Source: Candidatus Omnitrophota bacterium | GTDB taxonomy: Bacteria > Omnitrophota > Omnitrophia > Omnitrophales > JACROU01 | DNA: 64,000 nucleotides | Direction: 5' to 3' | Assembly: GCA_029261035.1 (NCBI GenBank) | Contig: JAJDCD010000022.1 | Coordinates: forward strand, 16,063 to 80,062 | Part shown: one piece after another, positions 5,620 through 28,581 of the stretch | How the letters are laid out: each line of letters opens with the position of its first letter | How positions within the stretch are numbered: the stretch's first letter is position 1 | Made by a program: the position numbers and the translations under genes | The notes under the pieces: generated by a model | Database searches by the model: none | Told to the model about the DNA's origin: nothing | The model's input: the letters and a program-made list of their open reading frames with translations, nothing else

Positions 5620-5623
5620 TAAG

Positions 5624-10528: not shown

Positions 10529-10580
10529 GTAAGAACTGAATTTCAATGTCATTATGCTCCAAATTAAAAGGAGAATCATA

Positions 10581-12485: not shown

Positions 12486-13148
12486 ATGCTTAAAGACATT
12501 CCATTATTCCAAGATTTAACAGCTGATGAAAGAAAGATTCTCGAGACTTGTTTGCATGAGAAGACCTACGAAAAAGGGGAGGTTCTCTTTTTGGCAGGAA
12601 CTATGTGTAAGCGAGTTTTCTTTGTTGCATCTGGAAAAATTAAGCTTTACAGAACCTCTGCTTCTGGAAAAGAACAGGTTTTAGAAGTTCTGGGTGGAGG
12701 TGAAACATGTGCTTGTAATGCTGAAGCTCAAGCCTTTAGTTGTGCTTCTACGGGAGAGGCCCTTATGCCGACAACAGTCTGGTACTTGTCAAAACCAGAT
12801 TATCTCCGCTTAGTACATGAAAATCCTAATATTGCCCGCAAATTGCTTCAAATCTTAACAGATAAGTTATTTAATATTGGGGGTTTAGTTGAAGAAATTT
12901 CTTTGATGAACGTCAAAGAGCGTCTTGTTAAGTTTCTATTAGATATGCTTAAAGATCAGACGAAGGGCGAAGGTAAAGATGAAGTTTTGATATTACCTTT
13001 CACCCGAGAAGAAATAGCTCACCAACTAGGTTCTGCAAGGGAAACGGTAGCGAGAAACCTTCATCAACTGAAGCAAGACAAGCTTATTGATATAAAACCT
13101 CATCAAATCGTTATTCTTGATAAAAATGGATTAGAAAGTCTCTTGTAA
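12486..13148 (+). CDS. Crp/Fnr-family transcriptional regulator (CRP-like recognition helix RETVAR; no FNR Cys cluster)
   Basis: N-terminal cNMP domain and C-terminal HTH …TREEIAHQLGSARETVARNLHQL…. It lies directly upstream of the nar operon. Confidence 0.85.
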   Translation: MLKDIPLFQDLTADERKILETCLHEKTYEKGEVLFLAGTMCKRVFFVASGKIKLYRTSASGKEQVLEVLGGGETCACNAEAQAFSCASTGEALMPTTVWYLSKPDYLRLVHENPNIARKLLQILTDKLFNIGGLVEEISLMNVKERLVKFLLDMLKDQTKGEGKDEVLILPFTREEIAHQLGSARETVARNLHQLKQDKLIDIKPHQIVILDKNGLESLL

Positions 13149-13247
13149 CTCTACTTATTTATCTTCTGTTTTTCATCTCATTTCATTGAAAATCCTACAA
13201 ATACGACAATTTCTGCCTAAAACTTAAAAATAGTTAATTTACCTGTG

Positions 13248-13263
13248 TGTGACCCATGTCACA
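13248..13263. promoter_or_regulatory. perfect CRP-type box TGTGA-CCCATG-TCACA, class-II position relative to TATACT −10 (13285-13290)
   Basis: Seen in sequence. Centre of the box to the −10 first base is 29.5 bp, the class-II geometry. It sits 82 bp upstream of the narC-like start. Confidence 0.65.
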
Positions 13264-13344
13264 AACAGTTTTAAGTAATGGAGCTATACTATTTTACGAG
13301 TTTGCACTATTCACCCAATTCTTTAGACTCTACGAAGGTGTGTA

Positions 13345-14136
13345 ATGAAGATAAATTTGTTGAGATTCTCAATTTCTCTATTTGTTTTGCTGGTATGTTT
13401 TCATTCTGGTAAGGCATTTGCTATCGATGAAGATATGGTGGATATTGACACGTCGGTTCAACTTTATGTACAGAACTGTTCTGGCTGTCATACCGTTGGA
13501 GGAGGAGAGCTGACGGGCCCTGACTTAAAGGATGTTTCTACATGGTCCCAGAATGATCTATTTCCGGCAGTAAAGAGAATGGAGAAAGAGGTAGGGCCTT
13601 TAACGGATGAAGAAATTCAGAGTTTGGTAGATTTCTTAAAGACTCCAGATGCGGGAGAACGTGTAAAAGCAGAAGAAGCAAAGGTTTCTATGAAGTTCCT
13701 GTCCCAGATGTCACCCGCAGATTCGGAGTTAGGAAAAGAATTATTTTTTGGCGAGAAAAGTTTTGAGAATAAAGGCTTAGCTTGCATTTCCTGCCACGGG
13801 ATATCGGATTACCAAGGAGGCCATTTAGGTCCCGACTTAACAGGGATTTACAAGAAAATGGGTGAAACGGCTTTAGTTTCTGCTAATGAAAAAGCTAGCT
13901 TTAAGATTATGCGAGCGGCTTATAAAGATCACGCTATTACAAAACAAGAAGCGCTCCACTTAACCGAGTTTATGAAAAAAGTTTCTGAAGATCCAAAAAC
14001 GGCATCGGAGTTTAATCCTGTTGTATGGATAGGCTCAGGGTTAGCCTTATTATTTTTTATTGTTCTTTTATTTATACGACCTAAAAGAAAAAAAAGCACA
14101 AGACATAATTTAATTAAAAAAACGAAAAAAGGGTAA
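13345..14136 (+). CDS. membrane-anchored dihaem cytochrome c (NarC-like)
   Basis: Signal peptide, two CxxCH motifs (CSGCH, CISCH), C-terminal TM helix and basic tail. First gene of the nar operon, as in Thermus narCGHJIK. Confidence 0.8.
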   Translation: MKINLLRFSISLFVLLVCFHSGKAFAIDEDMVDIDTSVQLYVQNCSGCHTVGGGELTGPDLKDVSTWSQNDLFPAVKRMEKEVGPLTDEEIQSLVDFLKTPDAGERVKAEEAKVSMKFLSQMSPADSELGKELFFGEKSFENKGLACISCHGISDYQGGHLGPDLTGIYKKMGETALVSANEKASFKIMRAAYKDHAITKQEALHLTEFMKKVSEDPKTASEFNPVVWIGSGLALLFFIVLLFIRPKRKKSTRHNLIKKTKKG

Positions 14137-14139
14137 ATC

Positions 14140-17100
14140 ATGAGTTGGATAAAAGATATTTTTTCACCTAAAGAAAGATCCTGGGAAGATTTTTATCGCA
14201 ATCGTTGGGCTTATGACAAGATTGTTCGGAGTACTCATGGTGTAAACTGCACCGGATCTTGTAGTTGGAATATTCATGTAAAGCAGGGGATTGTTACGTG
14301 GGAAATGCAAGCTTTGGACTACCCTCAAATTGATAAACAAATTCCTCCTTACGAACCTCGAGGATGTCAGAGAGGGATTTCTTACTCTTGGTATATCTAT
14401 AGCCCTTTAAGAATTAAGTATCCATTAGTGAGAGGGGTTCTTTTTGATTTGTGGAGAGAAGCTAAAAGAAAATATCCAACGGATCCTGTCAAAGCCTGGG
14501 AATCCATTGTAACGAATGAAAAGTCTAGAAAAGAATACCAACAAGCTCGAGGCAAGGGAGGTTTTAGAAGAGTTTCTTGGGATGAAGTCAGTGAGATTAT
14601 GGCTGCAGCTAATCTTTATACAGTGAAAAAATATGGGCCAGACCGATTGGTTGGATTTTCTCCAATTCCGGCGATGTCTATGATTAGTTATGCCGCAGGA
14701 GCTCGTTTTATGCAGCTTATGGGTGGTGTGGCTATGTCTTTTTATGATTGGTATTGTGATTTACCCCCTGCTTCTCCAGAAGTTTGGGGTGAGCAGACCG
14801 ACGTGGCTGAAAGTGCGGATTGGTATCAATCTAGAATGATCGCTGTTGTGGGATCTAATGTATTGATGACGCGTACGCCCGATGCGCATTACTTAGTCGA
14901 AGTGAGGCATCGTGGAAGTAAAGTTGTTGTTTTTTCTCCAGATTTTAGTCAAACCTCAAAAATTGCTGACGAATGGGTTCCAATTCACCAAGGACAAGAT
15001 GGTGCTTTTTGGCTTGCTGTAGGGCATGTTATTTTGAAAGAGTATTTTGTTGATCAAAAAACGGATTTCTTTTTGGATTATCAAAAGAAGTATACGGATG
15101 GACCTTTTCTTGTGGTTCTAAACAAGGGTGATGACGGAGTTTTTAAAGCGGGGTCTTTTTTAAGAGCTTCTGACTTTAAAGAAACACAAGATGAAGAAAA
15201 TGGAGAATGGAAACTTTTTGTTTGGGATCAAAAAACAAATAAACCGGCTATGCCAACAGGAACTGTAGGACATCGTTGGCAGGAAAAGAAAGGGGAATGG
15301 AATCTTAAAATGGAAGATTCTAAAACAGGAGAAAAACTGGATCCTGTTTTGTTTTTTGAAGGAAAAAATGCGGAGCAGGTTTCTGTTCATATGGACGATT
15401 TCTCTCAAGGGTTTGAAACGCAAAGTTTAGAACGTTCTATGTGTGCTCGGAAAATCAAAACGAAAGATGGGGAAGTGTATGTAACCACTTCTATGGAGCT
15501 GATGTTGGCTCAATATGGTGTTAAAAGATCAGAAAATGCTGAAGGGTTATGGCCAGATAGTTATGAGAATGATCTGGTGTATACGCCTGCTTGGCAAGAA
15601 AAGTTTACAGGCATCAAATCTTCAGTAGTGATTAATTTTGCAAGGGATTGGGCTCAGACGGCTATAGAAAGTGAAGGTCGTTGCAGTATTATTATTGGGG
15701 CTGGCGCAAATCACTGGTATCACAATAATCTGATTTATAGAGCGTGTATTAATGCACTCATCTTTTGTGGATGTGTTGGTAAGAACGGTGGTGGTTGGAA
15801 CCATTATGTAGGGCAAGAAAAACTGGCCCCAATGGCTTCTTGGTCTCCTATTGCATTTGGTACGGATTGGGGCGGTCCTCCTCGGCTTCAAAACTCTCCT
15901 TCATTTCACTATATTCATTCGGATCAATGGCGTTATGAGAAAGCATTTGATGAGGTTTGTGCTGTGAGTGAAAAAGATCATCCTATGACAACAGGACATA
16001 CGGCAGATAAGCAGGCTTTGGCTGTTCGTAACGGTTGGCTTCCATGTTTTCCTCAATTTAATAAAAGTAATTTTGATTTAATTAAAGAAGCTCGAGAGGA
16101 TGGAGCAGACGATCCTGGAAAAATAAAAAATTATGTAGTTAAACAATTAAAAGAGCGTAAGCTTTTATTTTCTATGGAAGATCCAGATAACCCCACGAGC
16201 TTTCCTCGTGTTTGGTACATTTGGCGTGGTAATGCTTTGATGTCTTCTGCTAAGGGGCATGAATATTTTTTAAAACATTATTTAGGAACACATTCCAATG
16301 CGATTTCTGAAGAAGTGGCGAAAGAAGATATTAAAGAGGTTGTTTGGCATGACAAGGTAGAGCTTGGAAAAATGGATTTAGTTGTGGATTTAAATTATCG
16401 TATGGATTCCTCTGCACTTTACTCCGATATTGTATTGCCGGCAGCCACTTATTATGAAAAAGATGATTTAAACTCTACGGACATGCATTCTTTTATCCAT
16501 CCTTTACAAGCGGCGGTTCAGCCTTGTTGGGAATCTAAAAGCGACTGGGCTATTTTTCGAGATTTAGCAAAAGCAACTTCTGAAATGTCGGAACAATATT
16601 TTTCAGAACCTGTTGAGGATATTGTTGTAACTCCTTTACTTCATGATACGCCACAGGAAATCACACAGCCCACCGTGAAAGATTGGGCTAAGGGAGAGTG
16701 TGAACCTATTCCGGGAAAAACAATGCCTAATATTCAAGTTGTTCAGCGGCATTATCCTGATGTGTATAAGAAATTTATTTCTTTAGGGCCTAACTATCGA
16801 AATAAGGGGTTGTCAGCTCATGGGTTGAGTTATATGGCAGATGATGAATATGATCGCTTTTGTGAAGAAGAGCCCGTAGAAAAGTGGGATGGAAAGGTCT
16901 ACCCATCTCTTAAAGAAGATAGAGGTGTTTGTGAGATTATTTTAGCTTTTGCTCCAGAAACGAATGGAGAAATGGCTTGTCGCGCTTATGAGGCGGAATC
17001 TAAAAAAACAGGTTTGGATCTCACTCATCTAGCTGAAGACAGCCGTTCCATTAAATATAATTTTAACGATTTAATCGCTTCTCCTAAGAGGGTATTGACG

Positions 17101-17775
17101 ACACCTTATTGGACAGGGGTAACACGAGACAATCGAACGTATAGTGCCTTTTGTCAGAATATAGAACAGTTGATTCCATGGAGAACTTTGACAGGAAGGC
17201 AGCACTTTTATATGGATCATGAGGCGTATCGGGCTTTTGGGGAACATGTTCCTACCTTTAAAATTAGAATGGATGAAAAACAAAGTCGTGATTTGGTTCA
17301 AACAAAAAAAGAACCAGACAGTCTAACTCTAAATTATTTAACTCCACATGGTAAATGGCATATCCATAGTACTTATGGAGACACGCTTCGTATGAAGACG
17401 TTGTCACGAGGAATTGAACCTATATGGTTGAATGATCGAGATGCTGGTTTAGTGGGTGTTTGTGATAATGATTGGGTCGAGGTGACGAATGATCACGGGT
17501 CTGTTGTTACGAGAGCGTGTGTGAGCGCTCGAATTCCAAGAGGTATTTGTTTTATTTATCATGCAGTGGAAAGAACGGTTGGAGTTCCTAAATCACCGTC
17601 GCGTAATTTTAAACGAGCAGGAGGACATAACAGTTTAACTCGAGCTCGATTGAAGCCTTTGTTTATGATTGGGGGATATGCTCAATTTTCATACTTTTTT
17701 AACTATTGGGGTCCTCAAGGAGTTAATAGAGATACTTTTATAAAAATACGCAAACTAGGCAAATTGGTCTGGTAA
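14140..17775 (+). CDS. narG: respiratory nitrate reductase alpha subunit NarG (cytoplasmic nNar type; no Tat signal)
   Basis: 1211 aa. N-terminal HGVNCTGSCSWNIHVKQG [4Fe-4S]/His motif. Molybdopterin oxidoreductase. Confidence 0.95.
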   Translation: MSWIKDIFSPKERSWEDFYRNRWAYDKIVRSTHGVNCTGSCSWNIHVKQGIVTWEMQALDYPQIDKQIPPYEPRGCQRGISYSWYIYSPLRIKYPLVRGVLFDLWREAKRKYPTDPVKAWESIVTNEKSRKEYQQARGKGGFRRVSWDEVSEIMAAANLYTVKKYGPDRLVGFSPIPAMSMISYAAGARFMQLMGGVAMSFYDWYCDLPPASPEVWGEQTDVAESADWYQSRMIAVVGSNVLMTRTPDAHYLVEVRHRGSKVVVFSPDFSQTSKIADEWVPIHQGQDGAFWLAVGHVILKEYFVDQKTDFFLDYQKKYTDGPFLVVLNKGDDGVFKAGSFLRASDFKETQDEENGEWKLFVWDQKTNKPAMPTGTVGHRWQEKKGEWNLKMEDSKTGEKLDPVLFFEGKNAEQVSVHMDDFSQGFETQSLERSMCARKIKTKDGEVYVTTSMELMLAQYGVKRSENAEGLWPDSYENDLVYTPAWQEKFTGIKSSVVINFARDWAQTAIESEGRCSIIIGAGANHWYHNNLIYRACINALIFCGCVGKNGGGWNHYVGQEKLAPMASWSPIAFGTDWGGPPRLQNSPSFHYIHSDQWRYEKAFDEVCAVSEKDHPMTTGHTADKQALAVRNGWLPCFPQFNKSNFDLIKEAREDGADDPGKIKNYVVKQLKERKLLFSMEDPDNPTSFPRVWYIWRGNALMSSAKGHEYFLKHYLGTHSNAISEEVAKEDIKEVVWHDKVELGKMDLVVDLNYRMDSSALYSDIVLPAATYYEKDDLNSTDMHSFIHPLQAAVQPCWESKSDWAIFRDLAKATSEMSEQYFSEPVEDIVVTPLLHDTPQEITQPTVKDWAKGECEPIPGKTMPNIQVVQRHYPDVYKKFISLGPNYRNKGLSAHGLSYMADDEYDRFCEEEPVEKWDGKVYPSLKEDRGVCEIILAFAPETNGEMACRAYEAESKKTGLDLTHLAEDSRSIKYNFNDLIASPKRVLTTPYWTGVTRDNRTYSAFCQNIEQLIPWRTLTGRQHFYMDHEAYRAFGEHVPTFKIRMDEKQSRDLVQTKKEPDSLTLNYLTPHGKWHIHSTYGDTLRMKTLSRGIEPIWLNDRDAGLVGVCDNDWVEVTNDHGSVVTRACVSARIPRGICFIYHAVERTVGVPKSPSRNFKRAGGHNSLTRARLKPLFMIGGYAQFSYFFNYWGPQGVNRDTFIKIRKLGKLVW

Positions 17776-17813
17776 ATCGAAGAAATATTTTTACATAACA
17801 AAGGAAAAACATA

Positions 17814-19310
17814 ATGGATGTAAGAGCTCAAACAGCAATGGTATTTCATTTGGATAAATGTATTGGATGCCATACCTGTAGTGTGGCATGTAAGAACATT
17901 TGGACTGATCGCCCAGGTGCAGAATATATGTGGTGGAATAATGTAGAAACAAAACCTGGAACGGGTTACCCCACGCTTTGGGAAGATCAGGTTAATTATA
18001 AAGGTGGGTGGGAAGTTACAGACAAGAGAGAACTAAAACTTAAAAGTCAAAACAAGAAAAATTTTTGGCTGAAGATGTTCTATAACCCTAACCAACCTAC
18101 ATTGGATGATTATTACGAACCATGGACTTATGAATATAAGCATTTAACAGATGCTAAGCTAGGAGATGATCAGCCTACAGCTAGACCGATTTCTCAAATC
18201 ACTGGGGAGCCTATTGATATTGAAGCGGGGCCCAACTGGGATGATGATTTATCCGGTTCTCCTATCTATGCCGAAAATGATCCTAATTTAAGCCAATTGT
18301 CAGAAGATGAGAAAAGAATGCTTTTTGAAATCGAAAGTATTTCAATGATGTACTTACCCCGCATTTGTAATCACTGTGCAAACCCAAGTTGTGTAGCTGC
18401 TTGTCCTTCTGGGGCATTGTATAAGCGAGGGGAAGATGGGATTGTACTTGTGAATCAAGATGTTTGTCGTGGTTGGAGAAATTGTGTAGCCGCATGCCCA
18501 TATAAGAAAATTTATTTTAATTGGAAAACAGGAAAATCTGAAAAATGTATTTTGTGTTACCCCCGAATAGAAACGGGGCAGCCTCCAGCATGTTTTCATA
18601 GTTGTGTTGGGAGAATCCGTTATATGGGTGTTTTGCTTTATGATGCAGATCGTGTTGAAGAAGCGATGAAAGCGCCTTTAAATTCTCTTGTGGAGTCGCA
18701 AAGAAGTGTTTTGTTAGATCCTTTTGACCCTGAAGTTATTAAAGGAGCTAAAGAAAACAATATTAGTCCTGAAATGATTGACTCTGCACAGAATTCACCT
18801 GTATGGAATTATGTGATGAAGTGGAAATTAGCCTTACCTCTTCACCCGGAGTTTCGCACACTTCCTATGTTGTACTACGTTCCACCGTTACTTCCTGTAA
18901 TGGGGAAAATAGGGGACGGTATTTACGAGCATAAAACGGAAGACTTTTTTGCTTCAATAGAACAAGCGAGGCTTCCTATGAAGTTTTTGGCTTCTCTTTT
19001 CAGTGCGGGGAACTTAAATGAAATTAGAAGTGTCATGAAAAAACTTTTAGCGATACGACATTTCAAAAGAGCGGAATCTAGAAAAGAATTGGGCTCTGAC
19101 AAGATAAGAAAGATTCTTCATGAATCAAGAATGGACCCAGAAGAAGCAGAAGCAATCTATCAATTAACTTCTTGCCCTGGACCTTACGAGCGATTTGTTT
19201 TACCGCCTCTTCAAAGAGAAGAAGCGATGGAGGGTGGGGAAGAATGCCCTGAGTCTTGTAAAGGGAGTTGTGGCTTAGGAGATGTTCAAACACCAAAGCG
19301 AGGGTTATAA
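17814..19310 (+). CDS. narH: respiratory nitrate reductase beta subunit NarH
   Basis: Four Cys clusters (CIGCHTCSVAC…, CNHCANPSCVAACP…). Confidence 0.95.
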   Translation: MDVRAQTAMVFHLDKCIGCHTCSVACKNIWTDRPGAEYMWWNNVETKPGTGYPTLWEDQVNYKGGWEVTDKRELKLKSQNKKNFWLKMFYNPNQPTLDDYYEPWTYEYKHLTDAKLGDDQPTARPISQITGEPIDIEAGPNWDDDLSGSPIYAENDPNLSQLSEDEKRMLFEIESISMMYLPRICNHCANPSCVAACPSGALYKRGEDGIVLVNQDVCRGWRNCVAACPYKKIYFNWKTGKSEKCILCYPRIETGQPPACFHSCVGRIRYMGVLLYDADRVEEAMKAPLNSLVESQRSVLLDPFDPEVIKGAKENNISPEMIDSAQNSPVWNYVMKWKLALPLHPEFRTLPMLYYVPPLLPVMGKIGDGIYEHKTEDFFASIEQARLPMKFLASLFSAGNLNEIRSVMKKLLAIRHFKRAESRKELGSDKIRKILHESRMDPEEAEAIYQLTSCPGPYERFVLPPLQREEAMEGGEECPESCKGSCGLGDVQTPKRGL

Positions 19311-19313
19311 GTC

Positions 19314-19841
19314 ATGAGCGAAAAAAATGATTATATACAACTAGCAAAGCTTTTGGATTATCCAGATAAAAATTATATCAGTCAGCTAAGAACCATCATT
19401 AATTACTTTCAAGAAAAAAGCCCCGCAACTTCTCGTTTCTTAGAGGACTTTTTATCTCAACTTCTAGATCTGTCTTTGGAGCAAATACAAGAGATACAGA
19501 CAGCAACTTTTGATGTCAATCCTATCTGTGTGCCTTATGTGAGTGTGCATTTGTTTGGAGAAGAAAGTTTTAAGCGTTCTCAGCTTATGGCGGGTTTGGC
19601 GATGGCATATGCAGATGAGGAGTTTGATTCAGGTAAAGAATTAGCAGATCATTTAAGAAATATTCTTAATTTTGCACCTTACTTTAAAGCCGAAGAATGG
19701 GATGAGCTTGTTAGTTTTGTTTTGTTGGATTCAGTTGAAAAGATGCAAGGTAAACTAAAACAGCCGGATCATGTTTTCTTACCCTTATTGAATGCAATTT
19801 TAGAAAGACTGCGTCAAGATTCGCTTATAGGAGTTCTTTAA
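19314..19841 (+). CDS. narJ: nitrate reductase assembly chaperone NarJ
   Basis: 175 aa in the NarJ/TorD family, in its canonical position. Confidence 0.85.
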   Translation: MSEKNDYIQLAKLLDYPDKNYISQLRTIINYFQEKSPATSRFLEDFLSQLLDLSLEQIQEIQTATFDVNPICVPYVSVHLFGEESFKRSQLMAGLAMAYADEEFDSGKELADHLRNILNFAPYFKAEEWDELVSFVLLDSVEKMQGKLKQPDHVFLPLLNAILERLRQDSLIGVL

Positions 19842-21154
19842 TGATGAACCAAATGTTTTTTGTGGGATTGCCTTATTTAGCTTTATTTCTTTTAGTGGCA
19901 GGCTCTATCCTCCGATATGTGTGGAATCCTTTTAGTTATTCTGCGTTGTCGTCTCAGTTTTTAGAGAAAAATGCATTGTTGTGGGGGACGCTTTCTTGGC
20001 ATATAGGAATTTTAATTATTTTGCTTGGTCATCTTCCAGCATTCTTAGTACCCGAACTATGGAAAAGTTTAACTTCCAATTTTGTATTTCTTCTAACAGT
20101 AGAAACTGTGGGAGTGATGGCTTCCATTCTTTGTATTGCAGGACTTATTATTTTAATTGTTAGAAGAGTTGTTTCTGGAAAATTACAGCAAGTAACGACG
20201 GTTATTGATATTCTCTTACTCGTACTTATTTTGTTACAAGTGGTCATTGGTCTTTCGATGGCTCTGATGCATCGGTGGGGAGCTGTATGGTCTACAGGAA
20301 CAACAACACCCTATCTTTGGAGTATTCTTACCTTTCGTCCTGACATTTCTTATATAGAAGAAATGCCTCTTTTAGTTCAAGCTCATATTGTGATGGCCTG
20401 GATTATATTAATGCTCGTTCCTTTCTCAAGATTGGTTCACATATTTTCATTCCCTTTCCAATATTTCTTTCGTCCTCCCCAAAAGGTGGTTTGGGTCAGC
20501 GAGAGGAGGAAAGAACATGATGATTCACTTGTGGTGGTTCAAGAGAGTCGTAGAGACTTTGTTAAAGGGGCTTTGGGATTGTCTGTGGCTGGAGCTTTAT
20601 TGTCCGTAGGGGTTTTGGATAAATTGGCAGGTTTCTTTTATAAACCAGAAGTTTCTGTTGAAGAAGAAAGTAAACTGTTAGAGCAAAAACTAAAACGATT
20701 AGAACAAACAGCAGAAGAACGCACTTATCAGTTAGAAAGAATGAAGAAAGAGTTTATTTACGTATCGCGTCTAAATCAACTGGACATAGAAAAAGGGAAA
20801 TATTTTATTGATTACTTAATGCGTCCTGCTTTAGCGTTTTTGGGTAAGGATGGGCTTCCTATTCTCATATCTGCAAAATGCACCCATTTAGGATGTACCG
20901 TGGGGAGTGAGTTAGATAATCAAGGACGCATATTGTGCCCTTGCCATGTTTCTTATTTTAATATTAATACAGGGATGCCTAATCAAGGGGCTCCAGCTTT
21001 AGATCCTTTGCCTCATTTAGGCTGGGTGATCATGAATGCGAATAACGAGATTATTCTGGAGCAAGATCCATCCGGAAAGAGATATGGAAATGTGAATGTC
21101 AGTAGTATAGACAAAAGCAATCGTGTGTTTATAGCTAAGAAACATAAGGAGTAA
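19841..21154 (+). CDS. narI: NarI (gamma subunit, dihaem b) fused to a C-terminal Tat-anchor-like TM + Rieske [2Fe-2S] domain
   Basis: Residues 1-210 are NarI with His56/66/187/205 at E. coli-equivalent positions. SRRDFVKGALGLSVAGALL is a Rieske-type RR anchor. CTHLGC…CPCHVS are the Rieske boxes. Confidence 0.85.
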   Translation: MMNQMFFVGLPYLALFLLVAGSILRYVWNPFSYSALSSQFLEKNALLWGTLSWHIGILIILLGHLPAFLVPELWKSLTSNFVFLLTVETVGVMASILCIAGLIILIVRRVVSGKLQQVTTVIDILLLVLILLQVVIGLSMALMHRWGAVWSTGTTTPYLWSILTFRPDISYIEEMPLLVQAHIVMAWIILMLVPFSRLVHIFSFPFQYFFRPPQKVVWVSERRKEHDDSLVVVQESRRDFVKGALGLSVAGALLSVGVLDKLAGFFYKPEVSVEEESKLLEQKLKRLEQTAEERTYQLERMKKEFIYVSRLNQLDIEKGKYFIDYLMRPALAFLGKDGLPILISAKCTHLGCTVGSELDNQGRILCPCHVSYFNINTGMPNQGAPALDPLPHLGWVIMNANNEIILEQDPSGKRYGNVNVSSIDKSNRVFIAKKHKE

Positions 21155-21157
21155 TCT

Positions 21158-22264
21158 GTGGCTAAGCAAAGTCGTTTAAAGTATGTAATTGATGCCTTGT
21201 CTGAAAGGCTGCCTATGGAGAAATTAAGCTTTGAATCTATGGTGCAGAAGAAAGAGGTTCCTCTGCATAAAATGAGCTGGGCTTACTATATGGGTGGGTT
21301 GGCGCTCTTTTTCTTTTTGACACAGTTGATTACAGGGGTGATGTTGTTGTTTTACTATGAACCTACGGTTAGTGATGCGCATGCTTCTGTAGAGTATATT
21401 ACGCAACATGTGGTTTGGGGTGATTTGATTCGAAATTTACATACTTGGTCCTCTAGTCTTATGATTCTTTGTGTGATGGTCCATTTGTTAACAACATTTG
21501 CGATGAAGGCATTTGAAGCTCCTCGCGAGTTAACTTGGCTTACCGGTGTTGGCCTTTTAATTATTACTTTTATGTTTGGTTTCACTGGGTATTTACTTCC
21601 TTGGCATCAAATTGCAGTCAATGCGACTAAGGTGGGGTTGCAATCTATTGAATATTTAGGCAATTATCTACCCGGGTTTTTGGCAGAGTGGCCTACGATG
21701 ATTAAAGAGATTATTCAGGGAGGCCCTACTGTAGGACAGGCTACTTTAAGCCGTTTTTATGCGCTTCATGTTGTGATTTTACCTTTATGTTTATTTGGTT
21801 TGTTGGGTCTTCATTTGCTTTCAGTTCAACTTCACGGAATGAGCCAGGGGATTGATAAGCCTTCAAAAAAACAAGAACGCTTTTTTCCATTTTTTGTACT
21901 CAAAGATTTTTCTCTTTGGGGGATTGTGTTTTTAATTACCTTTATTTTGGCTCTCTGTCTTCCGTTTGAATCATTTTTTTCTTTTCCTCTATTTGAACCT
22001 TATGACCCACTGGGATCAACGCCTGATGGAATTAAGCCAGAGTGGTATTTCTTATTTCTTTTTTATCCTCTAGAACTCCTTCCTTTTTGGGTTGTTCTTT
22101 TGGGGTTGATGATTGTGATGGGTGTCTTAACATTTACACCCTGGATTTTCAAAAGTACTTCCAGAAAGATATTAACAATTATTTCACTGTTGTCAGCAGC
22201 ATACCTCATTATTATGACTTTGTTTGGAGGCATAATTTATGAATGGGTTAAAGGGGGACACTGA
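21158..22264 (+). CDS. cytochrome b of bc1/b6f-type complex (full length, PEWY Qo motif)
   Basis: GTG start. Conserved b-haem His residues and …IKPEWYFLFLFYP…. Confidence 0.88.
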   Translation: MAKQSRLKYVIDALSERLPMEKLSFESMVQKKEVPLHKMSWAYYMGGLALFFFLTQLITGVMLLFYYEPTVSDAHASVEYITQHVVWGDLIRNLHTWSSSLMILCVMVHLLTTFAMKAFEAPRELTWLTGVGLLIITFMFGFTGYLLPWHQIAVNATKVGLQSIEYLGNYLPGFLAEWPTMIKEIIQGGPTVGQATLSRFYALHVVILPLCLFGLLGLHLLSVQLHGMSQGIDKPSKKQERFFPFFVLKDFSLWGIVFLITFILALCLPFESFFSFPLFEPYDPLGSTPDGIKPEWYFLFLFYPLELLPFWVVLLGLMIVMGVLTFTPWIFKSTSRKILTIISLLSAAYLIIMTLFGGIIYEWVKGGH

Positions 22265-22266
22265 TA

Positions 22267-22905
22267 ATGAGATGGATTAAGGTTTTATCATTAGTAAGTT
22301 TTCTATTAGGAATCTCTTTTTTATTCCAAGACAACCTTTGTGCTTACCCTGAGTTTCAAGAGTTCTCACAGAAAAATTCAGGACGTTATGTTAACTGTGC
22401 TCTTTGTCATGCCCATCCTGATGGTCCTGAGGGAATTAAGCCAGGGCAGGTAGGTAGTTTGGATGAGGAGGAAAGGCAGTTGTTGAATCAGGCACGAGCA
22501 GCCGTTCAGCCTGGATTTGAAGTTAATAGCCCCATTCTAAATGAGTTTGGCAATGACATTATGAAGCAATTAGGAAAGAAAGAATTTTTATTGTACCGCA
22601 AGTTTCCAGAACGTTTATCTGAAGTGTTAGATCCAAATAGCGATTTAGATAACGATGGAATTTCAGATAGGCAAGAATATTTAGATGGAACTCATCCTTT
22701 AAATAATCAACACGGAAATCCATGGAAGTTATTTAACCATCGATTTTGGAATAATCGTTTTGATATTTTAATTATTGTTTTAGCCACTTTTTTTGGGCTT
22801 TATGGTTTTAAGCATTTGCTTCATTGGCTACATTTTAAGACATCCTCTTTTAATAAGGATGAGGATGAAAGCGAAGATGAGGACAAGGATTCTTATTCCA
22901 TATAA
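22267..22905 (+). CDS. membrane-anchored monohaem cytochrome c (c1-like partner)
   Basis: Signal peptide, CALCHAH, C-terminal TM helix and acidic tail. Confidence 0.75.
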   Translation: MRWIKVLSLVSFLLGISFLFQDNLCAYPEFQEFSQKNSGRYVNCALCHAHPDGPEGIKPGQVGSLDEEERQLLNQARAAVQPGFEVNSPILNEFGNDIMKQLGKKEFLLYRKFPERLSEVLDPNSDLDNDGISDRQEYLDGTHPLNNQHGNPWKLFNHRFWNNRFDILIIVLATFFGLYGFKHLLHWLHFKTSSFNKDEDESEDEDKDSYSI

Positions 22906-22917
22906 GGAGTTATCGTC

Positions 22918-24405
22918 ATGCAAACACAAGCAACTTTTGATTCCCACAAGGCACTTTTTTTAAATACGTTTGCTTTTACTGTGTGTTTTGCCGTTTGGAT
23001 GTTAAACGGGGTGCTCGTAACCTTTTTAGTAGCAAATCAGGTCTTTGACTGGGGTCCTGTTGAAATAGGTTGGTTGTTGGGGATTCCTGTCTTAACGGGT
23101 TCTCTTTTTCGTTTGCCTGCAGGTATGCTTACGGATAAGTTTGGAGGCAAGCCCATTTATGGAGCTTTGCTTTTAATATGCGCTGTACCTATGTACTTAT
23201 TATCGTACGCTAATGATTTTACCAGTTTTGCTTTATGCAGTTTTGGATTTGGATTAGCAGGGGTTAGTTTTTCTATTGGAATTGCGTTTTCTTCTGTTTG
23301 GTATCCTAAAAATATTCAAGGAACAGTACTCGGCATTTTTGGTGCAGGAAATGCTGGAGCAGCGCTCACAACATTGTTTGCTCCTACCATCTTAAATAAA
23401 TTAACACAAAATGGAATCAATATAGAAGGTTGGAGAATGTTACCAAAGTATTATGCTTTGGTATTGATTGCCACTGCTATTGTGTTTTTTATCTTTTCTA
23501 AAAACAAAAAACCTGCTTCGAGTGGCTTGGGTTGGATTGAGATGTTGAAGCCATTAAAAAATATTCGAGTATGGCGATTTGGGCTTTATTACTTTTTGGT
23601 GTTTGGGTGTTTTGTGGCTTTTTCTCAATGGCTAGTACCTTATTTTGTAAATGTTTATTACTTACCTTTAGTTACAGCAGGAATCTTTGCTTCGCTATTT
23701 AGTTTGCCTTCAGGTGTTATTCGAGCTTTAGGAGGGTGGATGTCGGATAAGTTTGGAGCAAGGAAAGTGATGTATTGGATCCTAGCATCTTCAACCATTA
23801 TTTGCTTCTTGTTAATTGTTCCCAAAATGGATATTTACTCCCCAGGGCAGGGGATTATGGCTAAAAGAGCGGGAGAGGTTGTTGGGGTGACTGATGGTGC
23901 AATTAAAGTAGATACTAAGACTTACACCATGGTTAAAGCCCAGAATAAATTTGATGATTTGGATGATCAAGTTTTGGTATTTCCTTCAAAAGAAGTGTGG
24001 CAAGAAGCAGTTGTTGAGGTGGGTCAAAAAGTAAAACGAAAAGAGTTGTTAGCAAAAGGAATAACCCGAATTCATTTTCAGGCGAATGTATGGATTTTTA
24101 CCGTTCTGGTTATTGCATTAGGGGCTATCTGGGGGATTGGAAAAGCAGCCGTTTATAAACATATTCCTGATTATTTTCCTAACGAAGTGGGTGTTGTCGG
24201 AGGGATGGTCGGAGTTCTTGGCGGGTTAGGCGGGTTTTTCTGCCCGATTATTTTTGGTTATTTGCTAAAAGGAACAGGGCTTTGGACGAGTTGTTGGATT
24301 TTTATGTTCTTTTTATCTTTTCTCTGTCTGTGGTGGATGCATCATGTCATTAGTCATATGTTGAGAAAGAAACAACCCGAATTAGAACATCGAATTGACC
24401 ATTAA
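22918..24405 (+). CDS. narK: MFS nitrate/nitrite transporter NarK1
   Basis: 12-TM MFS in the NNP family, with a long central loop. Confidence 0.85.
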   Translation: MQTQATFDSHKALFLNTFAFTVCFAVWMLNGVLVTFLVANQVFDWGPVEIGWLLGIPVLTGSLFRLPAGMLTDKFGGKPIYGALLLICAVPMYLLSYANDFTSFALCSFGFGLAGVSFSIGIAFSSVWYPKNIQGTVLGIFGAGNAGAALTTLFAPTILNKLTQNGINIEGWRMLPKYYALVLIATAIVFFIFSKNKKPASSGLGWIEMLKPLKNIRVWRFGLYYFLVFGCFVAFSQWLVPYFVNVYYLPLVTAGIFASLFSLPSGVIRALGGWMSDKFGARKVMYWILASSTIICFLLIVPKMDIYSPGQGIMAKRAGEVVGVTDGAIKVDTKTYTMVKAQNKFDDLDDQVLVFPSKEVWQEAVVEVGQKVKRKELLAKGITRIHFQANVWIFTVLVIALGAIWGIGKAAVYKHIPDYFPNEVGVVGGMVGVLGGLGGFFCPIIFGYLLKGTGLWTSCWIFMFFLSFLCLWWMHHVISHMLRKKQPELEHRIDH

Positions 24406-24432
24406 CAACGAGTAAAGTTTAAGGAGTGGAAG

Positions 24433-26028
24433 ATGTCAAAAATTAATATTCCCGATTGGGATGTCGAAAATAATGAGTTTTGGAATAATAAGGGTAAAAA
24501 ACTTGCTTCTAAGAACCTTTGGCTTTCTATTCCTGCATTGCTACTGGCTTTTTCTGTCTGGTTGATGTGGGGGATGGTTATTGTTCAGATGAAAAAGCTG
24601 GGATTTAACTTAGGGCTTCCTGCGGAAACTCCGGAGCATTTAAGGCGAATTAACGAACTTTTATGGACGCTTCCTGCGATTGCAGGTTTGTCTGGAGCAA
24701 CATTGAGGATTCCCAATTCTTTTTTAATTGCTGTTGGGGGTGGACGTAATGTTATTTTCTTAACGACAGCACTTCTTCTAATTCCAACAGTGGCTGCAGG
24801 GGTAGCGTTACAGGATGTGAATACGCCTTTTTTCATTTTTGCTTTATTAGCGGCCTTATCCGGGTTTGGGGGAGGTAACTTTGCTTCTTCCATGTCTAAC
24901 ATTAGTTTTTTCTTTCCTAAAAGAGTCCAGGGAACTTCATTGGGTTTGAATGCAGGTCTTGGTAATTTAGGTGTGAGTGTTATGCAGTTTGTGATTCCTA
25001 TTGTTATTGCAGGAGGAGTCTTTGGAGCTGTGGCAGGTGGAGGTTTACCCTTAGTGGAGGTGGATGGCTCTAAAGCTGTGGGAACTTTGGTGTATATTCA
25101 GAACGCGGCATGGGTTTGGGTGCCTCTCTTAATCATTTCTGTTATCGCTGCTTTCTTCGGTATGAACAATTTGAAGTTTGCAACCCCTGCATTAGGTAAT
25201 TATTTTTTAGAGTTTAGTAAAATTATATTATTGATTTTTTTCGGAGTAGTCGCTGCTGGTTTTGGAGGTTGGTTACTAATTGGTTTAAAATTGAATATGT
25301 GGCTTGTGTTGCCCATTACAATTTTGATAACCGTTCTCTTGATGAAATTCTTATCTCCTGGGGAGTTGAAGGAAAATTTAAATAGGCAGTTTTCAATCTT
25401 TAAAAGTAAGCATAACTGGATTATGACGATTATCTATACGATGACTTTTGGCTCTTTTATTGGATACTCTGCTTCTTTCCCAAAATTAATTCAGGATGTG
25501 TTTGGATACCTACCCGATGGAGGGGTGAACCCAAATGCGCCAAACCCTATGACATGGGCTTTTTTAGGCCCCATGTTAGGCGCTTTAATTAGACCCTTAG
25601 GGGGATGGCTTTCTGATAAAGTCAATAGTGGGTCTAAAGTGACGACATGGAGTACGATTGCTCAGGTAGGTGCGGCGCTTGGAGTTGCTTACTTTATAGT
25701 TCAGGCAAAAGGGGTTGAAACTCCTGAAACTTATTGGTGGCCATTTTTTGTACTATTTATGATTTTATTCATTGCTACGGGCGTTGGAAATGGATCTACG
25801 TTTAGAAGTATTCCATATATTTTTAGTAAAGAGCAAGCGGGCCCTGTACTAGGATGGACCTCAGCCATTGCTGCTTATGGGGCATTTATTATTCCCAAAG
25901 TTTTTGGACAACAAATTAAAGCGGGCCATGCGGAATATGCGCTTTATGGATTTACGGCTTATTATTTGATTTGCTTGCTCCTGAATTGGTATTACTATGA
26001 CCGAAAAAATTCGCTCATTAAATGTTAG
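24433..26028 (+). CDS. narK: MFS nitrate/nitrite transporter NarK2
   Basis: Second NNP-family MFS paralogue in tandem. Confidence 0.85.
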   Translation: MSKINIPDWDVENNEFWNNKGKKLASKNLWLSIPALLLAFSVWLMWGMVIVQMKKLGFNLGLPAETPEHLRRINELLWTLPAIAGLSGATLRIPNSFLIAVGGGRNVIFLTTALLLIPTVAAGVALQDVNTPFFIFALLAALSGFGGGNFASSMSNISFFFPKRVQGTSLGLNAGLGNLGVSVMQFVIPIVIAGGVFGAVAGGGLPLVEVDGSKAVGTLVYIQNAAWVWVPLLIISVIAAFFGMNNLKFATPALGNYFLEFSKIILLIFFGVVAAGFGGWLLIGLKLNMWLVLPITILITVLLMKFLSPGELKENLNRQFSIFKSKHNWIMTIIYTMTFGSFIGYSASFPKLIQDVFGYLPDGGVNPNAPNPMTWAFLGPMLGALIRPLGGWLSDKVNSGSKVTTWSTIAQVGAALGVAYFIVQAKGVETPETYWWPFFVLFMILFIATGVGNGSTFRSIPYIFSKEQAGPVLGWTSAIAAYGAFIIPKVFGQQIKAGHAEYALYGFTAYYLICLLLNWYYYDRKNSLIKC

Positions 26029-26037
26029 TTTTGTGAT
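26022..26037. promoter_or_regulatory. CRP-type box TGTGA-TTTGAA-TCACt upstream of radical-SAM gene
   Basis: 9/10 half-site match. ATAATT at 26059 gives a −41.5 centre. Confidence 0.5.
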
Positions 26038-26136
26038 TTGAATCACTGTTTTATTGTACGGCACATGATAATTTAAACTCGTGATCGATTAATTTTTTAT
26101 TAATAAACCAAAGTCTATTAGCGAGTTTAAATTATT

Positions 26137-26904
26137 ATGCCGATTCCACTACAACCCTCAGTCGTTTATGGCCCTATATACTCTCGACGGTTAAATACAT
26201 CCCTAGGGATTAACATTCTGCCAACTGATAGAAAATACTGTTTTTCTAATTGCTTATATTGTCAATATGGCTTTACGGACTTTCTCTCTTTGTCTCAGAG
26301 AAAGCTCAGTTCGATCGATTTTCTAATTAAAAGAATAGAACAAGGCTTTGAAGAACATAAGAAAAAAGGGCTGAAGCCTCATTCCATAACGTTTAGCGGG
26401 AATGGAGAACCTACGGTTCATCCAGAACTTTTCTTTATAGTAAAAGAAGTTAAGAATTTAAGAGATATTTATTTTCCACAAACTCCCATTTCAATTCTCT
26501 CTGATTCTTCAAGGGTTCACTTTAAGAGTGTTCAAAAAGCTCTATCTCAATTTGATTTATGTTATATGAAGCTGGATTCAGGAGATGATGAAATGATGAA
26601 GGTTATTAATGATTCTCGATTTCAGGTTCCTTGGAATAAGAAACTAACGGGTTTGAAAGAAATTTCGAACCTAGCTATTCAAAGTATGTTTTTTTCTACT
26701 CCAGTTAATAATGCTTCTGAAGAGCAGGTAGAGCTTTGGCTTAACAAATTAGAGCAAGTAGCACCAAGCGAAGCTCATTTATACACGATTGACCGTTCTC
26801 CAGCGCATGAGAAAGCAACAGCTGTAAGCAAACAAACGCTTAACAAAATAGCTAAATCAGTAAAGAAAAGAATGGGTGGGGTAGATGTGAAGGTATTTAA
26901 ATAG
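26137..26904 (+). CDS. small radical-SAM protein (CxxxCxxC), function unknown
   Basis: CFSNCLYCQYG motif near the N-terminus, 255 aa. Confidence 0.7.
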   Translation: MPIPLQPSVVYGPIYSRRLNTSLGINILPTDRKYCFSNCLYCQYGFTDFLSLSQRKLSSIDFLIKRIEQGFEEHKKKGLKPHSITFSGNGEPTVHPELFFIVKEVKNLRDIYFPQTPISILSDSSRVHFKSVQKALSQFDLCYMKLDSGDDEMMKVINDSRFQVPWNKKLTGLKEISNLAIQSMFFSTPVNNASEEQVELWLNKLEQVAPSEAHLYTIDRSPAHEKATAVSKQTLNKIAKSVKKRMGGVDVKVFK

Positions 26905-26949
26905 AGCATTAAAATCTTAGGGTTGTAATTTATATAAGGTGGTGATGGC

Positions 26950-28383
26950 ATGAAGATAATATATGTACTTTTAATTGTTGTTATGGGAGTGACAACAAAT
27001 TTATATGCAGAGAATGTAAAAGAACAATTTGCTGTTGATTCTGGAGTTGCCCAACAAGAGAGCGTTGCAAGGTTGCTCGATCGTTCTCTTCAATCGGTTG
27101 ATGATTCTGTAGGAGTTTTGGCAAAACCTTTGGATGTTCTTTTTCAGCCCATTTCCATTTGGGATGAAAATATTACTTTTCAATTAAGTGGCCAATATCG
27201 GTATCGTTTGGAGTTGAGAGATGATTTTAATTTTAATGATGCTCGATTTGAAGATGATGATATTCATTTAATGAGGACTCGTTTAAATGGAAAACTTCAA
27301 ATAGGCCCTTATTTGAAAATTTTTGCACAAGCTCAAGATGCAGAGAGTTTTGCAGGTCGCCAGGCTCATAAATCAAGAGCATTTGTAAACCGATTGGATT
27401 TGAGACAACTTTATGGAGAAGTCATTAGTCCATGGGAAGATATTCCTGTGAGTGTCAAAGTGGGACGTCAGGAGTTGTCTTATGGGGATCAGCGGTTTGT
27501 GGGAGCTTTTAATTGGTCTAATGTTGCAAGGGTATTTGATGCGGTTAAAGTGACAGTGACCCCTGTTTCTTGGTTTAACTTTGATATTTTTCTAAGCCAA
27601 GTTGTTCAAGTTAATCGCAGTCAGCCGGACTCTTCAAATCATAATGATAATTTTTATGGTATTTATAGCACGTTAAAACCATTCCAAGAACACCTGATCG
27701 ACACATTCTTGTTTATACGCCACAATCAGAATCGTGGAATTGTGGGGGAAGTTCCGGGAAGGTTAGGACAGTTAAAAGAGTATACGTTTGGCAACCGTTT
27801 TAAGGGTAAAAAATGGAATTTTGATTATGGATTGGAGTGGGCGTTGCAATTAGGTTCTCGAGCACATGATGAGATTAATGCGTGGGCTTTACACGTCGAA
27901 GCTGGATATACGTTTAAAGATTGCCCTTGGTCCCCGCGATTGTCTTTTGAGTATAACCATGGGTCCGGAGACAGCGATCCTACAGATGGAAAAAATGAGA
28001 ATTTTGATAATTTATTTCCTACAAACCACATGCACTATGGTTATATGGACTTTGCTAGTTTGAGAAATATTGAAAATATCAAACTAGCATTTGATTTAAA
28101 GCCACATAAAAAAATCAAACTAACAACAGCATATCATTGGTTTTTCTTGGATACGACAAACAGTGCTTGGTTTAATGCGGGGCAGGGAGTTATTCGACCT
28201 CGTTCTCCAGGGGCAAGTAACACGATTGGACAAGAGTTAGATCTGACACTTAAGTGGAATATGAACGAACATCTTAATTTATTTGTAGGTTACTCGCATT
28301 TTAATGCAGGCGCTTTTATTAAAGATACAGGAGCAAGTGATAATGCGAATTTCTTCTATGTGCAGTCGACTATTAATTTCTAA
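26950..28383 (+). CDS. outer-membrane β-barrel protein / putative porin
   Basis: Signal peptide, alternating amphipathic β-strands and C-terminal …YVQSTINF (terminal Phe). Confidence 0.65.
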   Translation: MKIIYVLLIVVMGVTTNLYAENVKEQFAVDSGVAQQESVARLLDRSLQSVDDSVGVLAKPLDVLFQPISIWDENITFQLSGQYRYRLELRDDFNFNDARFEDDDIHLMRTRLNGKLQIGPYLKIFAQAQDAESFAGRQAHKSRAFVNRLDLRQLYGEVISPWEDIPVSVKVGRQELSYGDQRFVGAFNWSNVARVFDAVKVTVTPVSWFNFDIFLSQVVQVNRSQPDSSNHNDNFYGIYSTLKPFQEHLIDTFLFIRHNQNRGIVGEVPGRLGQLKEYTFGNRFKGKKWNFDYGLEWALQLGSRAHDEINAWALHVEAGYTFKDCPWSPRLSFEYNHGSGDSDPTDGKNENFDNLFPTNHMHYGYMDFASLRNIENIKLAFDLKPHKKIKLTTAYHWFFLDTTNSAWFNAGQGVIRPRSPGASNTIGQELDLTLKWNMNEHLNLFVGYSHFNAGAFIKDTGASDNANFFYVQSTINF

Positions 28384-28430
28384 ATAAACAAGCAGCTAAA
28401 CTTGGTTTTCTCTGCTTGTCCCGCCAAAAG

Positions 28431-28459
28431 GGCATGGTTTGGGTACTATGCCCTTTTTT
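28431..28459 (+). terminator. rho-independent terminator after porin gene
   Basis: GGGCATggtttgggtactATGCCC followed by TTTTTTA. Confidence 0.7.
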
Positions 28460-28490
28460 ACCTTAATGAGGCTCTATATCTAGGGGGATC

Positions 28491-28510
28491 AATGTGATCT
28501 AGATCACATT
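28491..28510. promoter_or_regulatory. 20-bp perfect palindrome AATGTGATCTAGATCACATT (CRP-type box), class-II spacing to TACAAT −10 (28530-28535)
   Basis: Seen in sequence. Centre to −10 is 29.5 bp; it lies upstream of nrdD. Confidence 0.65.
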
Positions 28511-28581
28511 TTTAACCTTAGATCTTGTATACAATATTTTCTACCTACGATATATAGACACTTTATTCCAAGGAGGGTTTT

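Follow-up and report, generated by a model that had tools for sequence, protein, structure and literature searches.

Activators of the Crp/Fnr superfamily that govern anaerobic respiration through a CRP-type operator box (TGTGA-N6-TCACA) are a known kind of system, several examples of which have been described. Examined here is a further system of this kind, namely a Crp/Fnr-family regulator and the operator boxes associated with it within a 64-kb stretch of DNA from a Candidatus Omnitrophota bacterium (contig JAJDCD010000022.1; 38% G+C). This stretch, to which the scan of the organism's own genome was confined, is termed here the window. What is new about the system is its subfamily, the effector pocket of which is lined with cysteines, the dominance of that subfamily within the phylum, and a promoter rule that is exact to the base pair.

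The Fnr protein of Bacillus subtilis and of Paenibacillus is a Crp/Fnr-family anaerobic activator that, as proposed here for the window's regulator, controls nitrate reductase genes, nitrate transporter genes and itself. Its site is reportedly centred at -41.5, a placement that is said to go back to Reents et al. in 2006. The operator of Firmicutes Fnr is TGTGA-N6-TCACA rather than the E. coli FNR box, and the ligands of the Bacillus [4Fe-4S] cluster are three C-terminal cysteines (C227, C230 and C235) together with D141 (bioRxiv 10.1101/2020.01.03.894683). Bacillus Fnr and the window's regulator are thus alike in having a cysteine arrangement that departs from the N-terminal motif of E. coli FNR; they differ in that the Bacillus cysteines are C-terminal, whereas those of the window's regulator lie in the beta-roll effector pocket, and the likeness observed is one of function.

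In E. coli, FNR switches on nar and nrdDG when oxygen is absent, acting at class II sites located at -41.5, and its [4Fe-4S] cluster is ligated by an N-terminal Cx2Cx5C motif and by C122. The physiological role is that proposed for the window's regulator, for which an iron-sulfur (Fe-S) sensor is likewise the leading hypothesis; the recognition helix (E--SR in FNR versus RETVAR) and the box (TTGAT-N4-ATCAA versus TGTGA-N6-TCACA) are different, and against the NCBIfam Fnr model the regulator scores 56 bits, the cutoff being 228. With E. coli CRP it shares the fold, the helix residues R180/E181/R185, the operator consensus and class II geometry; it differs in having lost the contacts to cyclic AMP (cAMP) and in its targets, which are respiratory and anaerobic rather than catabolic, and it scores 61.5 bits against the CRP equivalog model NF008732 (cutoff 266).

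Desulfovibrio HcpR1, which is without the FNR cysteine motif, keeps the R/E/R residues and acts on nap and on the gene that encodes it from the operator wTGTGA-N6-TCACAw (PMC1274295, PMC5701242); it is defined by its control of hcp and frdX and is thought to sense nitric oxide (NO) through haem (PMC5701242). Common to HcpR1 and the window's regulator are a CRP-like operator, the conserved R180/E181 and, as predicted here, a target set made up of nitrate-reduction genes and the regulator itself. When the 62 box-adjacent genes described below are grouped into families, hcp is not one of the 25 commonest, nor is it found in the scanned open reading frames (ORFs) of the window; for HcpR1 the literature covered mentions no four-cysteine motif, and the Porphyromonas gingivalis HcpR structure (9day) is distant (E = 3.9e-8, 21% identity). 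In Thermus thermophilus the CRP-like DnrT activates nar and its own operon within dnrST-narCGHJIKT (PMC6282519). There, as in the window, the gene for a CRP-like activator stands immediately upstream of a nar operon that opens with narC; different are the absence of a DnrS-like gene from the window and the presence, in the window's regulator, of a candidate sensor site of its own. In CooA, finally, the cofactor ligands belong to the sensor-domain loop that corresponds to the one bearing the C75-x-C77 described below, but CooA is a haem-based sensor of carbon monoxide (CO) with a different helix (SRQTTS) and other targets, and DNR and NnrR differ in using FNR-like operators (TTGAT-N4-ATCAA or TTGCG-N4-CGCAA).

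Four operator boxes were found in the window. Two of these are perfect matches to TGTGA-N6-TCACA: TGTGACCCATGTCACA (13248-13263), in the promoter of the nar operon, and TGTGATCTAGATCACA (28493-28508), in the promoter of nrdD, where it forms the middle of a perfect 20-bp palindrome (28491-28510). Both sites and the palindrome agree with an earlier reading of the letters of this DNA (termed here the original prediction). The third box, TGTGATTTGAATCACT (26032-26047), has one mismatch and lies in the promoter of a radical S-adenosylmethionine (radical-SAM) protein and porin gene pair; it too had been noticed, but with a slip of 10 bp, at 26022-26037, where the window reads ATGTTAGTTTTGTGAT. The fourth and weaker one, AGTGATCTAAGTCACT (10513-10528), retains the core GTGA-N6-TCAC and precedes a unit consisting of a fatty-acid desaturase, a small ORF, a protein with only a cyclic-nucleotide-binding-like domain (termed here the cNMP-only protein) and the regulator.

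The exact 16-mer pattern thus occurs twice in the window, as compared with 0.06 occurrences expected, and at least two were obtained in 0 of 100 shuffles; the core occurs four times as compared with 0.58 expected from shuffles. Intergenic DNA makes up 7.9% of the window, yet it contains every one of the core matches (P ~4e-5), and the four boxes lie 60.5-97.5 bp 5' of start codons on the + strand. Three further one-mismatch matches (at 52586, 56350 and 59923) fall inside ORFs and are probably due to chance.

The boxes stand at a fixed distance from candidate -10 elements, all on the + strand and all with the hexamer starting 29.5 bp from the centre of the box: TATACT (13285-13290) for nar, with a predicted start of transcription near 13297; an extended -10, TGA-TAATTT (26066-26074, hexamer at 26069), for the radical-SAM/porin pair, with a predicted start near 26081; TACAAT (28530-28535) for nrdD, with a predicted start near 28542; and, for the fourth box, an extended -10-like TGT-CATTAT (10547-10555, hexamer at 10550), with a predicted start near 10562. 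The spacing of 29.5 bp had been claimed originally for TATACT, TACAAT and ATAATT; it is exact for the first two, whereas ATAATT (26068) is at 28.5 bp and it is the adjoining extended TAATTT that is at 29.5. If transcription starts 7 nt past the hexamer (an assumption, the starts themselves being predictions from sequence), then each box is centred at -41.5. The -35 positions of the four promoters are poor (CAAACA, CTGTTT, CATTTT and CTGTAA), and these promoters would therefore need an activator. A site near -41.5 combined with a weak or absent -35 element, which is the class II arrangement, is found at all four, and class II activation of the boxed promoters is accordingly rated as likely.

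The same promoters can be examined in a syntenic relative (JGI 3300032138, a 2.17-Mb contig that is also present in ENA ERZ27248688 and that was found through exact-protein look-ups; loci L079 and L082 below), the regulator of which is 79% and the NrdD of which is 87% identical to that of the window. There the nar promoter (L079) has the box TGTGACCTACGTCACA, with TATACT at +29.5; the radical-SAM promoter (L082) has AGTGATCTGCGTCACT, with TGA-TAATCT at +29.5; the nrdD promoter (L082) has AGTGATGTATGTCACA, with TAGAAT at +29.5; and the operon of the small ORF, the cNMP-only protein and the regulator (L079) has a perfect box, TGTGACTTACATCACA, with TACTCT at +29.5. The targets named by the original prediction--nar, the radical-SAM gene and nrdD--hence keep their boxes at the same promoters. 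In pairwise alignment, three of the four promoters keep the box and the -10 within flanks that diverge; the exception is nrdD, where everything from the box through the ribosome-binding site is conserved between window and relative. The nar box of the relative overlaps the stop codon of the regulator gene: the TGA of its TGTGA (L079 10659-10674) is the regulator's own stop, whereas in the window the gap between stop and box is about 100 bp.

This comparison also changes how the weaker box is to be understood. That box had been described as preceding the desaturase, and it is indeed present where it was reported; it aligns, however, with the relative's box TGTGACTTACATCACA in front of the operon of small ORF, cNMP-only protein and regulator, and the relative's desaturase sits elsewhere, without a box. 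Box 10513 is therefore best read as, probably, the autoregulatory promoter of the regulator operon, into which a desaturase gene has been inserted.

Beyond this relative, the regulator belongs to a subfamily (50-58% identity, 313 matches at E <= 1e-10) that a scan of species-representative genomes located at 68 loci, comprising 957 kb, nearly all of them labelled as Omnitrophota and a few as Planctomycetia, Eisenbacteria or Auribacterota. The 957 kb around these 68 regulators contain 37 perfect and 65 one-mismatch boxes, where a rough hand estimate gives about one perfect box by chance. Intergenic DNA accounts for 9.4% of the sequence and for 81 of the 102 sites, including 35 of the 37 perfect ones.

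In an unbiased test, all palindromes made of two 5-mers with 0-10 bases between them were counted within the 220 bp that follow the regulator's stop codon. The commonest is GTGAC-N4-GTCAC, in 41 of 63 loci, followed by TGTGA-N6-TCACA in 25, the maximum for controls being 2; a box lies no more than 200 bp downstream of that stop codon in 49/63 loci. Of 63 box-to-gene pairs, 42 have a TAnnnT sequence beginning at +29.5 and another 9 have one at +30.5, as compared with 0-4 at other offsets and 5 on the mirror side (P ~2e-54), so that the class II placement at -41.5 asserted by the original prediction holds in the window, in the relative and across the subfamily. The subfamily consensus is TGTGAC-N4-GTCACAG, position 6 being C or T and never A. 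Sequence statistics and comparative genomics, through enrichment over all loci, intergenic bias and fixed spacing, make the box, its tie to the regulator and the -41.5 architecture a property of the subfamily as a whole. That the boxes are operators of this regulator is very probable indeed.

The regulator itself (12486-13148, + strand; 220 residues) is assigned to the Crp/Fnr superfamily by its cNMP_binding (PF00027, E = 2.3e-16) and HTH_Crp_2 (PF13545, E = 4.5e-18) domains, both above the gathering cutoffs. Its AlphaFold model (mean predicted local distance difference test score, or pLDDT, of 76) has a normal Crp fold, including the long dimerisation helix (114-141) between the domains, and its best Foldseek matches are all Crp/Fnr proteins, at the top 4ev0 (Thermus CRP, E = 1.8e-18). 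None of the NCBIfam equivalogs CRP, Fnr, FixK, NtcA, FnrL and FtrB comes near its cutoff and no solved structure exceeds 27% identity, the best being 4ev0 and Pseudomonas DNR (3dkw, 27%); the regulator is therefore not assigned to any named subfamily.

Its recognition helix, ARETVAR (within GSARETVARNL), is of the CRP type, as had been noted originally: R185, E186 and R190 are invariant and RET[VIA]AR occurs in 116 of 120 homologues. In CRP, the corresponding R/E/R residues of the helix read the G-C pairs of TGTGA. Because the helix keeps these three residues, the regulator is predicted to bind TGTGA-N6-TCACA, which is the operator that is found; across the CRP/FNR family as a whole the R/E/R residues of the helix co-vary with the operator (Rodionov et al., PMC1274295).

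The sensor domain is where the subfamily departs from what has been described. The original prediction stated that the regulator has no FNR cysteine cluster, and literally this is true: the E. coli FNR motif Cx2Cx5C occurs within the first 45 residues of 0 of 120 homologues and the Bacillus motif Cx2Cx4C within the last 40 residues of, again, 0 of 120, the regulator ending at residue 220. What was overlooked are four cysteines within the sensor domain--C41, C75, C77 and C86--that are invariant in 30/30 aligned sequences, CxC-x7-9-C being present in 120/120 homologues. No histidine in the sensor domain is invariant among the aligned sequences.

Alignment with CRP and CooA, a step put forward originally as a means of predicting the effector, indicates where these cysteines lie. 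Relative to E. coli CRP (by BLASTP), C75 and C77 fall at I70 and E72, and W-x-C86 falls at W85-x-R87, the cysteines thus occupying the place of G71/E72 and of the phosphate-binding cassette; this cassette is 6 residues shorter than that of CRP, the R82/S83 pair is missing and E72 is not kept. Given the shortened cassette and the loss of the cAMP contacts E72, R82 and S83, cAMP is an unlikely effector. Relative to CooA (a Rhodospirillum rubrum query identical to PDB 1ft9; profile alignment, ~24% identity), C75-A-C77-N78 falls on F74-C75-M76-H77, of which C75 and H77 are the haem ligands, and C86 falls on C80, so that the cysteines come to within one residue of the haem-ligand loop. By homology, therefore, the four cysteines map to one pocket, that of the effector, and an Fe-S, metal or haem sensor is suggested.

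A glimpse of what else the subfamily may control comes from the 62 genes that directly follow a regulator-adjacent box. The commonest (28/62) encodes a hemerythrin-domain protein of ~175 residues that weakly resembles the Fe-S-repair protein RIC. In L005 (11855-12975), from an Omnitrophota metagenome-assembled genome, a box, AGTGACGCCGGTCACA, precedes a gene for a copper nitrite reductase, nirK (320 bits versus a cutoff of 296, TIGR02376), which links the regulator subfamily to denitrification beyond the window. Other boxed genes encode the glutamyl-tRNA reductase HemA (in L013 and L053), a dihaem cytochrome c, a PAS-GGDEF protein and Rrf2 regulators; the regulator itself is boxed in L007 and L038; and homologues of the window's radical-SAM protein (49-51% identity) come directly after boxes beside the regulator in L009 and L020. 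Homologues of the small ORF (47-53 residues), which has no Pfam family, likewise follow a box (L079 9315-9458, L029 4375-4533 and L004 9666-9794), and because they do so repeatedly, directly after the box and beside the regulator, this small protein may be a core member of the regulon. The boxed genes, taken together, fit a regulon for anaerobic growth, denitrification and N-oxide stress.

The best overall explanation, to which somewhat better than even confidence is attached, is that of a dimeric Crp/Fnr activator, belonging to an Omnitrophota subfamily, that acts at CRP-type boxes and carries a cofactor held by cysteines. In the mechanism that we infer--which covers binding, direction of control, transcription starts, cofactor and signal--the regulator would be a dimeric activator of a distinct Crp/Fnr subfamily that is common in Candidatus Omnitrophota; bound at -41.5, the dimer would stand in for the -35 contact and bring RNA polymerase to the promoter in class II fashion, and would thereby drive the promoters of the nar operon, of the radical-SAM/porin pair, of nrdDG and of its own operon, the box at the latter implying positive autoregulation. 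C41 together with C75-x-C77-x8-C86 would hold an Fe-S cluster or other metal centre whose state would report oxygen and/or NO, such that the regulon would be on under anoxic, nitrate-respiring conditions.

Two explanations would deny the regulator its boxes. With 10 specified bases the motif is a short one, and the composition of intergenic DNA is biased, so that the palindromes might be functionless products of chance in AT-rich intergenic sequence; the shuffle tests contradict this, as do the retention of the sites in the relative and the enrichment, intergenic bias and fixed -10 spacing seen across the subfamily, and the idea can for practical purposes be set aside. Alternatively, the boxes might serve another protein, either a Rex-type repressor (TTGTGAA-N4-TTCACAA) or a true cAMP-dependent CRP, with the nearby regulator being incidental. 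Rex operators do share the TGTGA-N6-TCACA core, and Rex is reported on sites identical to those of HcpR1 (PMC5701242, PMC2883068); moreover, the 64 kb of the window leave room for other regulators in this genome. Nevertheless, position 6 of the site is never the A of Rex, a box follows the regulator's stop codon closely in most loci from diverse genomes, a fixed -41.5 position without a -35 element marks an activator and not a repressor, the half-site is precisely the one to be expected from the regulator's helix, and the scanned window ORFs include neither a Rex gene nor a second Crp gene. For these reasons Rex in particular is unlikely, and that any other protein is the true ligand of these boxes appears very improbable.

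The remaining explanations accept the operators and differ about what the cysteines do. Four conserved ligands, the lack of an invariant histidine and the fact that nar and nrdDG are classically controlled by oxygen favour an Fe-S cluster, and a cysteine-ligated Fe-S or metal sensor is accordingly regarded as a good possibility, though one held at a little less than even confidence. Several observations weigh against it and against the explanation of which it forms part. The putative cofactor is assigned from the conservation and position of the cysteines; the AlphaFold model is only moderately confident, with a pLDDT of 66-73 over the cysteine loop; the first gene after one of the boxed promoters encodes an oxygen-dependent desaturase, a poor fit to a purely anaerobic regulon; nrdD in four other Omnitrophota (L084-L087) has no box, even when three mismatches are allowed; and the commonest targets elsewhere, the RIC-like hemerythrin and NirK, are typical of regulators that respond to NO rather than to oxygen. 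Because of the four unboxed loci, which have NrdR-box-like sequences instead, nrdD was rejected as a family-wide target and its membership in the regulon is taken to be specific to the window's lineage.

The NO-regulon character of these targets, together with the correspondence between C75-A-C77-N78 and the haem-ligand loop of CooA, makes a haem-thiolate sensor a serious rival: with the same operators and the same mechanism, one or two cysteines would be axial ligands of a haem, and NO (or CO) would switch the protein on, as in CooA, DNR and HcpR1, the last of which combines the same box and the same R/E/R residues with presumed haem-based sensing. Yet four invariant cysteines exceed what a haem needs and equal what a cubane cluster needs, the sensor domain is without an invariant histidine, and the classical control of nrdDG and nar is by oxygen and not by NO; the haem sensor is therefore considered unlikely, though well worth keeping in mind. 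More doubtful still is that the cysteines hold no redox cofactor at all and serve instead either as ligands of a structural zinc, Zn(Cys)4, or, like those of CprK and FLP, as a thiol/disulfide switch, the signal then coming from some other ligand or from a partner such as the cNMP-only protein. Disulfide control is known for CprK (PMC2610375), the cNMP-only protein and the small ORF share the autoregulated operon of the regulator in this lineage, and the AlphaFold model adopts a normal Crp fold free of any cofactor; the cysteines, on the other hand, replace the ligand cassette and leave little space in which a further small molecule could bind. The cNMP-only protein, suggested at first as a possible co-sensor, was confirmed to have the domain reported for it (11967-12419), but its tblastn matches near the regulator are confined to the window's lineage, and 68 other Omnitrophota loci lack it in the neighbourhood of the regulator; it was thus rejected as a general partner, and this explanation as a whole is rated improbable.

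If the preferred explanation, that of a cysteine-held Fe-S or metal centre, is followed to its end, then the subfamily would constitute a new class of Crp/Fnr sensor. Earlier-known placements of the cluster are the N-terminal one of proteobacterial FNR and the C-terminal one of Bacillus Fnr. A centre held by C41 and C75-x-C77-x8-C86 within the nucleotide-binding pocket would be a third, independent cofactor placement, and in this class the Omnitrophota would have their main switch for anaerobic and N-oxide conditions, one that works through a CRP-type operator at a strictly conserved -41.5; this larger proposal is put forward tentatively. Literature searches, which did not cover the positions of the Fe-S-cluster cysteines of HcpR2, returned no description of the four-cysteine motif or of Crp/Fnr regulators in Omnitrophota. 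The CRP scaffold may thus have been reused once more for gas or redox sensing, with ligands in the pocket that holds cAMP in CRP and haem in CooA, and an Fe-S cluster at that location would represent a new solution to the problem of how FNR-type proteins sense oxygen.

The Omnitrophota are known mainly from metagenome-assembled genomes. In this phylum a core regulon (hemerythrin, radical-SAM, NirK, hemA, nar and nrdDG) is now legible from sequence, together with its operator and its promoter architecture, and the box, used jointly with the 29.5-bp rule, can serve to annotate anaerobic and denitrification regulons in such assemblies.

Within the window, the genes of interest belong to a run of + strand genes that extends from 8.7 to 31.5 kb, the first encoding a Na+/H+ exchanger and the last being nrdG; the top named relatives of the window's MiaB, NrdD and regulator are from Candidatus Omnitrophota. 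The unit that ends with the regulator begins with the desaturase (FA_desaturase domain; 10581-11753, + strand), the ORF of which opens at 10554; because AAGGAG precedes it, the ATG at 10581 is the likelier start. A desaturase 58% identical to this one is encoded directly upstream of the regulator in L016. There follow the conserved small ORF (11782-11943, + strand; 53 residues, MHENEINFEINEIVNIKG...VDAGTRKMCLKQI...) and the gene of the cNMP-only protein (+ strand; 150 residues), which has the motif GWSW...HRW in place of the GELG...RS of CRP and which is 72% conserved in the relative.

The nar operon (13345-26028, + strand) encodes, in order, a narC-like dihaem cytochrome c, NarG, NarH, NarJ, a NarI-Rieske fusion, a cytochrome b, a 212-residue protein and two narK-like transporters of the major facilitator superfamily, and it is syntenic in L079 and L082. 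The part of the operon at 13345-22905 (+ strand) is unusual in that the narC-like dihaem cytochrome c leads it, and in that the NarI-Rieske fusion (19841-21154) is followed by a b/b6-type cytochrome b (21158-22264) and then by the 212-residue protein, an order that is kept in the relative. This arrangement points to a coupling of the nitrate reductase with a bc-like module. Next come the radical-SAM protein (255 residues) and an outer-membrane porin of the Alginate_exp type (26137-28383, + strand).

The last two genes of the run (28582-31513, + strand) are nrdD, for an anaerobic class III ribonucleotide reductase with NRDD and ATP-cone domains, and nrdG, for its activase (above the cutoff of the NrdG2 model TIGR02495). 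Two sequences resembling NrdR boxes, CAATATTTTC (28532-28541) and CGATATATAG (28548-28557), lie between the -10 and the ribosome-binding site of nrdD, and clearer tandem NrdR-like boxes, ACTACAATATATTG, lie 5' of nrdD in the four other Omnitrophota mentioned above (L084-L087). The window's nrdD may thus be under dual control, by the activator at its box and by NrdR as a repressor; among the window's genes no nrdR was seen.

A molybdenum cofactor (Moco) riboswitch (RF01055; 31525-31648, + strand; 37.8 bits versus a gathering score of 36) follows nrdG and lies directly 5' of moaA and further Moco genes (moaC/B, a tauE-like gene, moeA, moaD/E and mobA), so that the supply of Moco for Nar appears to be under the riboswitch and not under an operator box. 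It is the sole match of an Rfam scan, which found no regulatory RNA at the four boxed promoters. Just upstream of the run is a block of Fe-S assembly genes (1441-8135, + strand) that encode an Rrf2-family regulator, SufB, SufC, SufD, a cysteine desulfurase, a NifU-like scaffold and an FeS_assembly_P protein; it is without a box, and it is near both the putatively Fe-S-dependent regulator and that regulator's Fe-S-rich targets.

Farther downstream, a giant ORF (41709-51683, + strand; 3324 residues) combines an ARMT1-like damage-control phosphatase, an AprA-like methyltransferase and helix-turn-helix domains. The intergenic DNA that follows this ORF contains the palindrome TGTCACTAAAGTGACA (51718-51733, TGTCAC-N4-GTGACA), which was rejected as an operator because its half-sites are inverted (GTCAC...GTGAC) and the motif is a different one; it could form a short hairpin. 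A large ORF on the opposite strand (59161-63936, - strand; 1591 residues) is without a Pfam match. After the Moco genes there is an IS200/Y1-type transposase gene (38279-38875, - strand), which is found at the same relative position in L082 (21710 onward).

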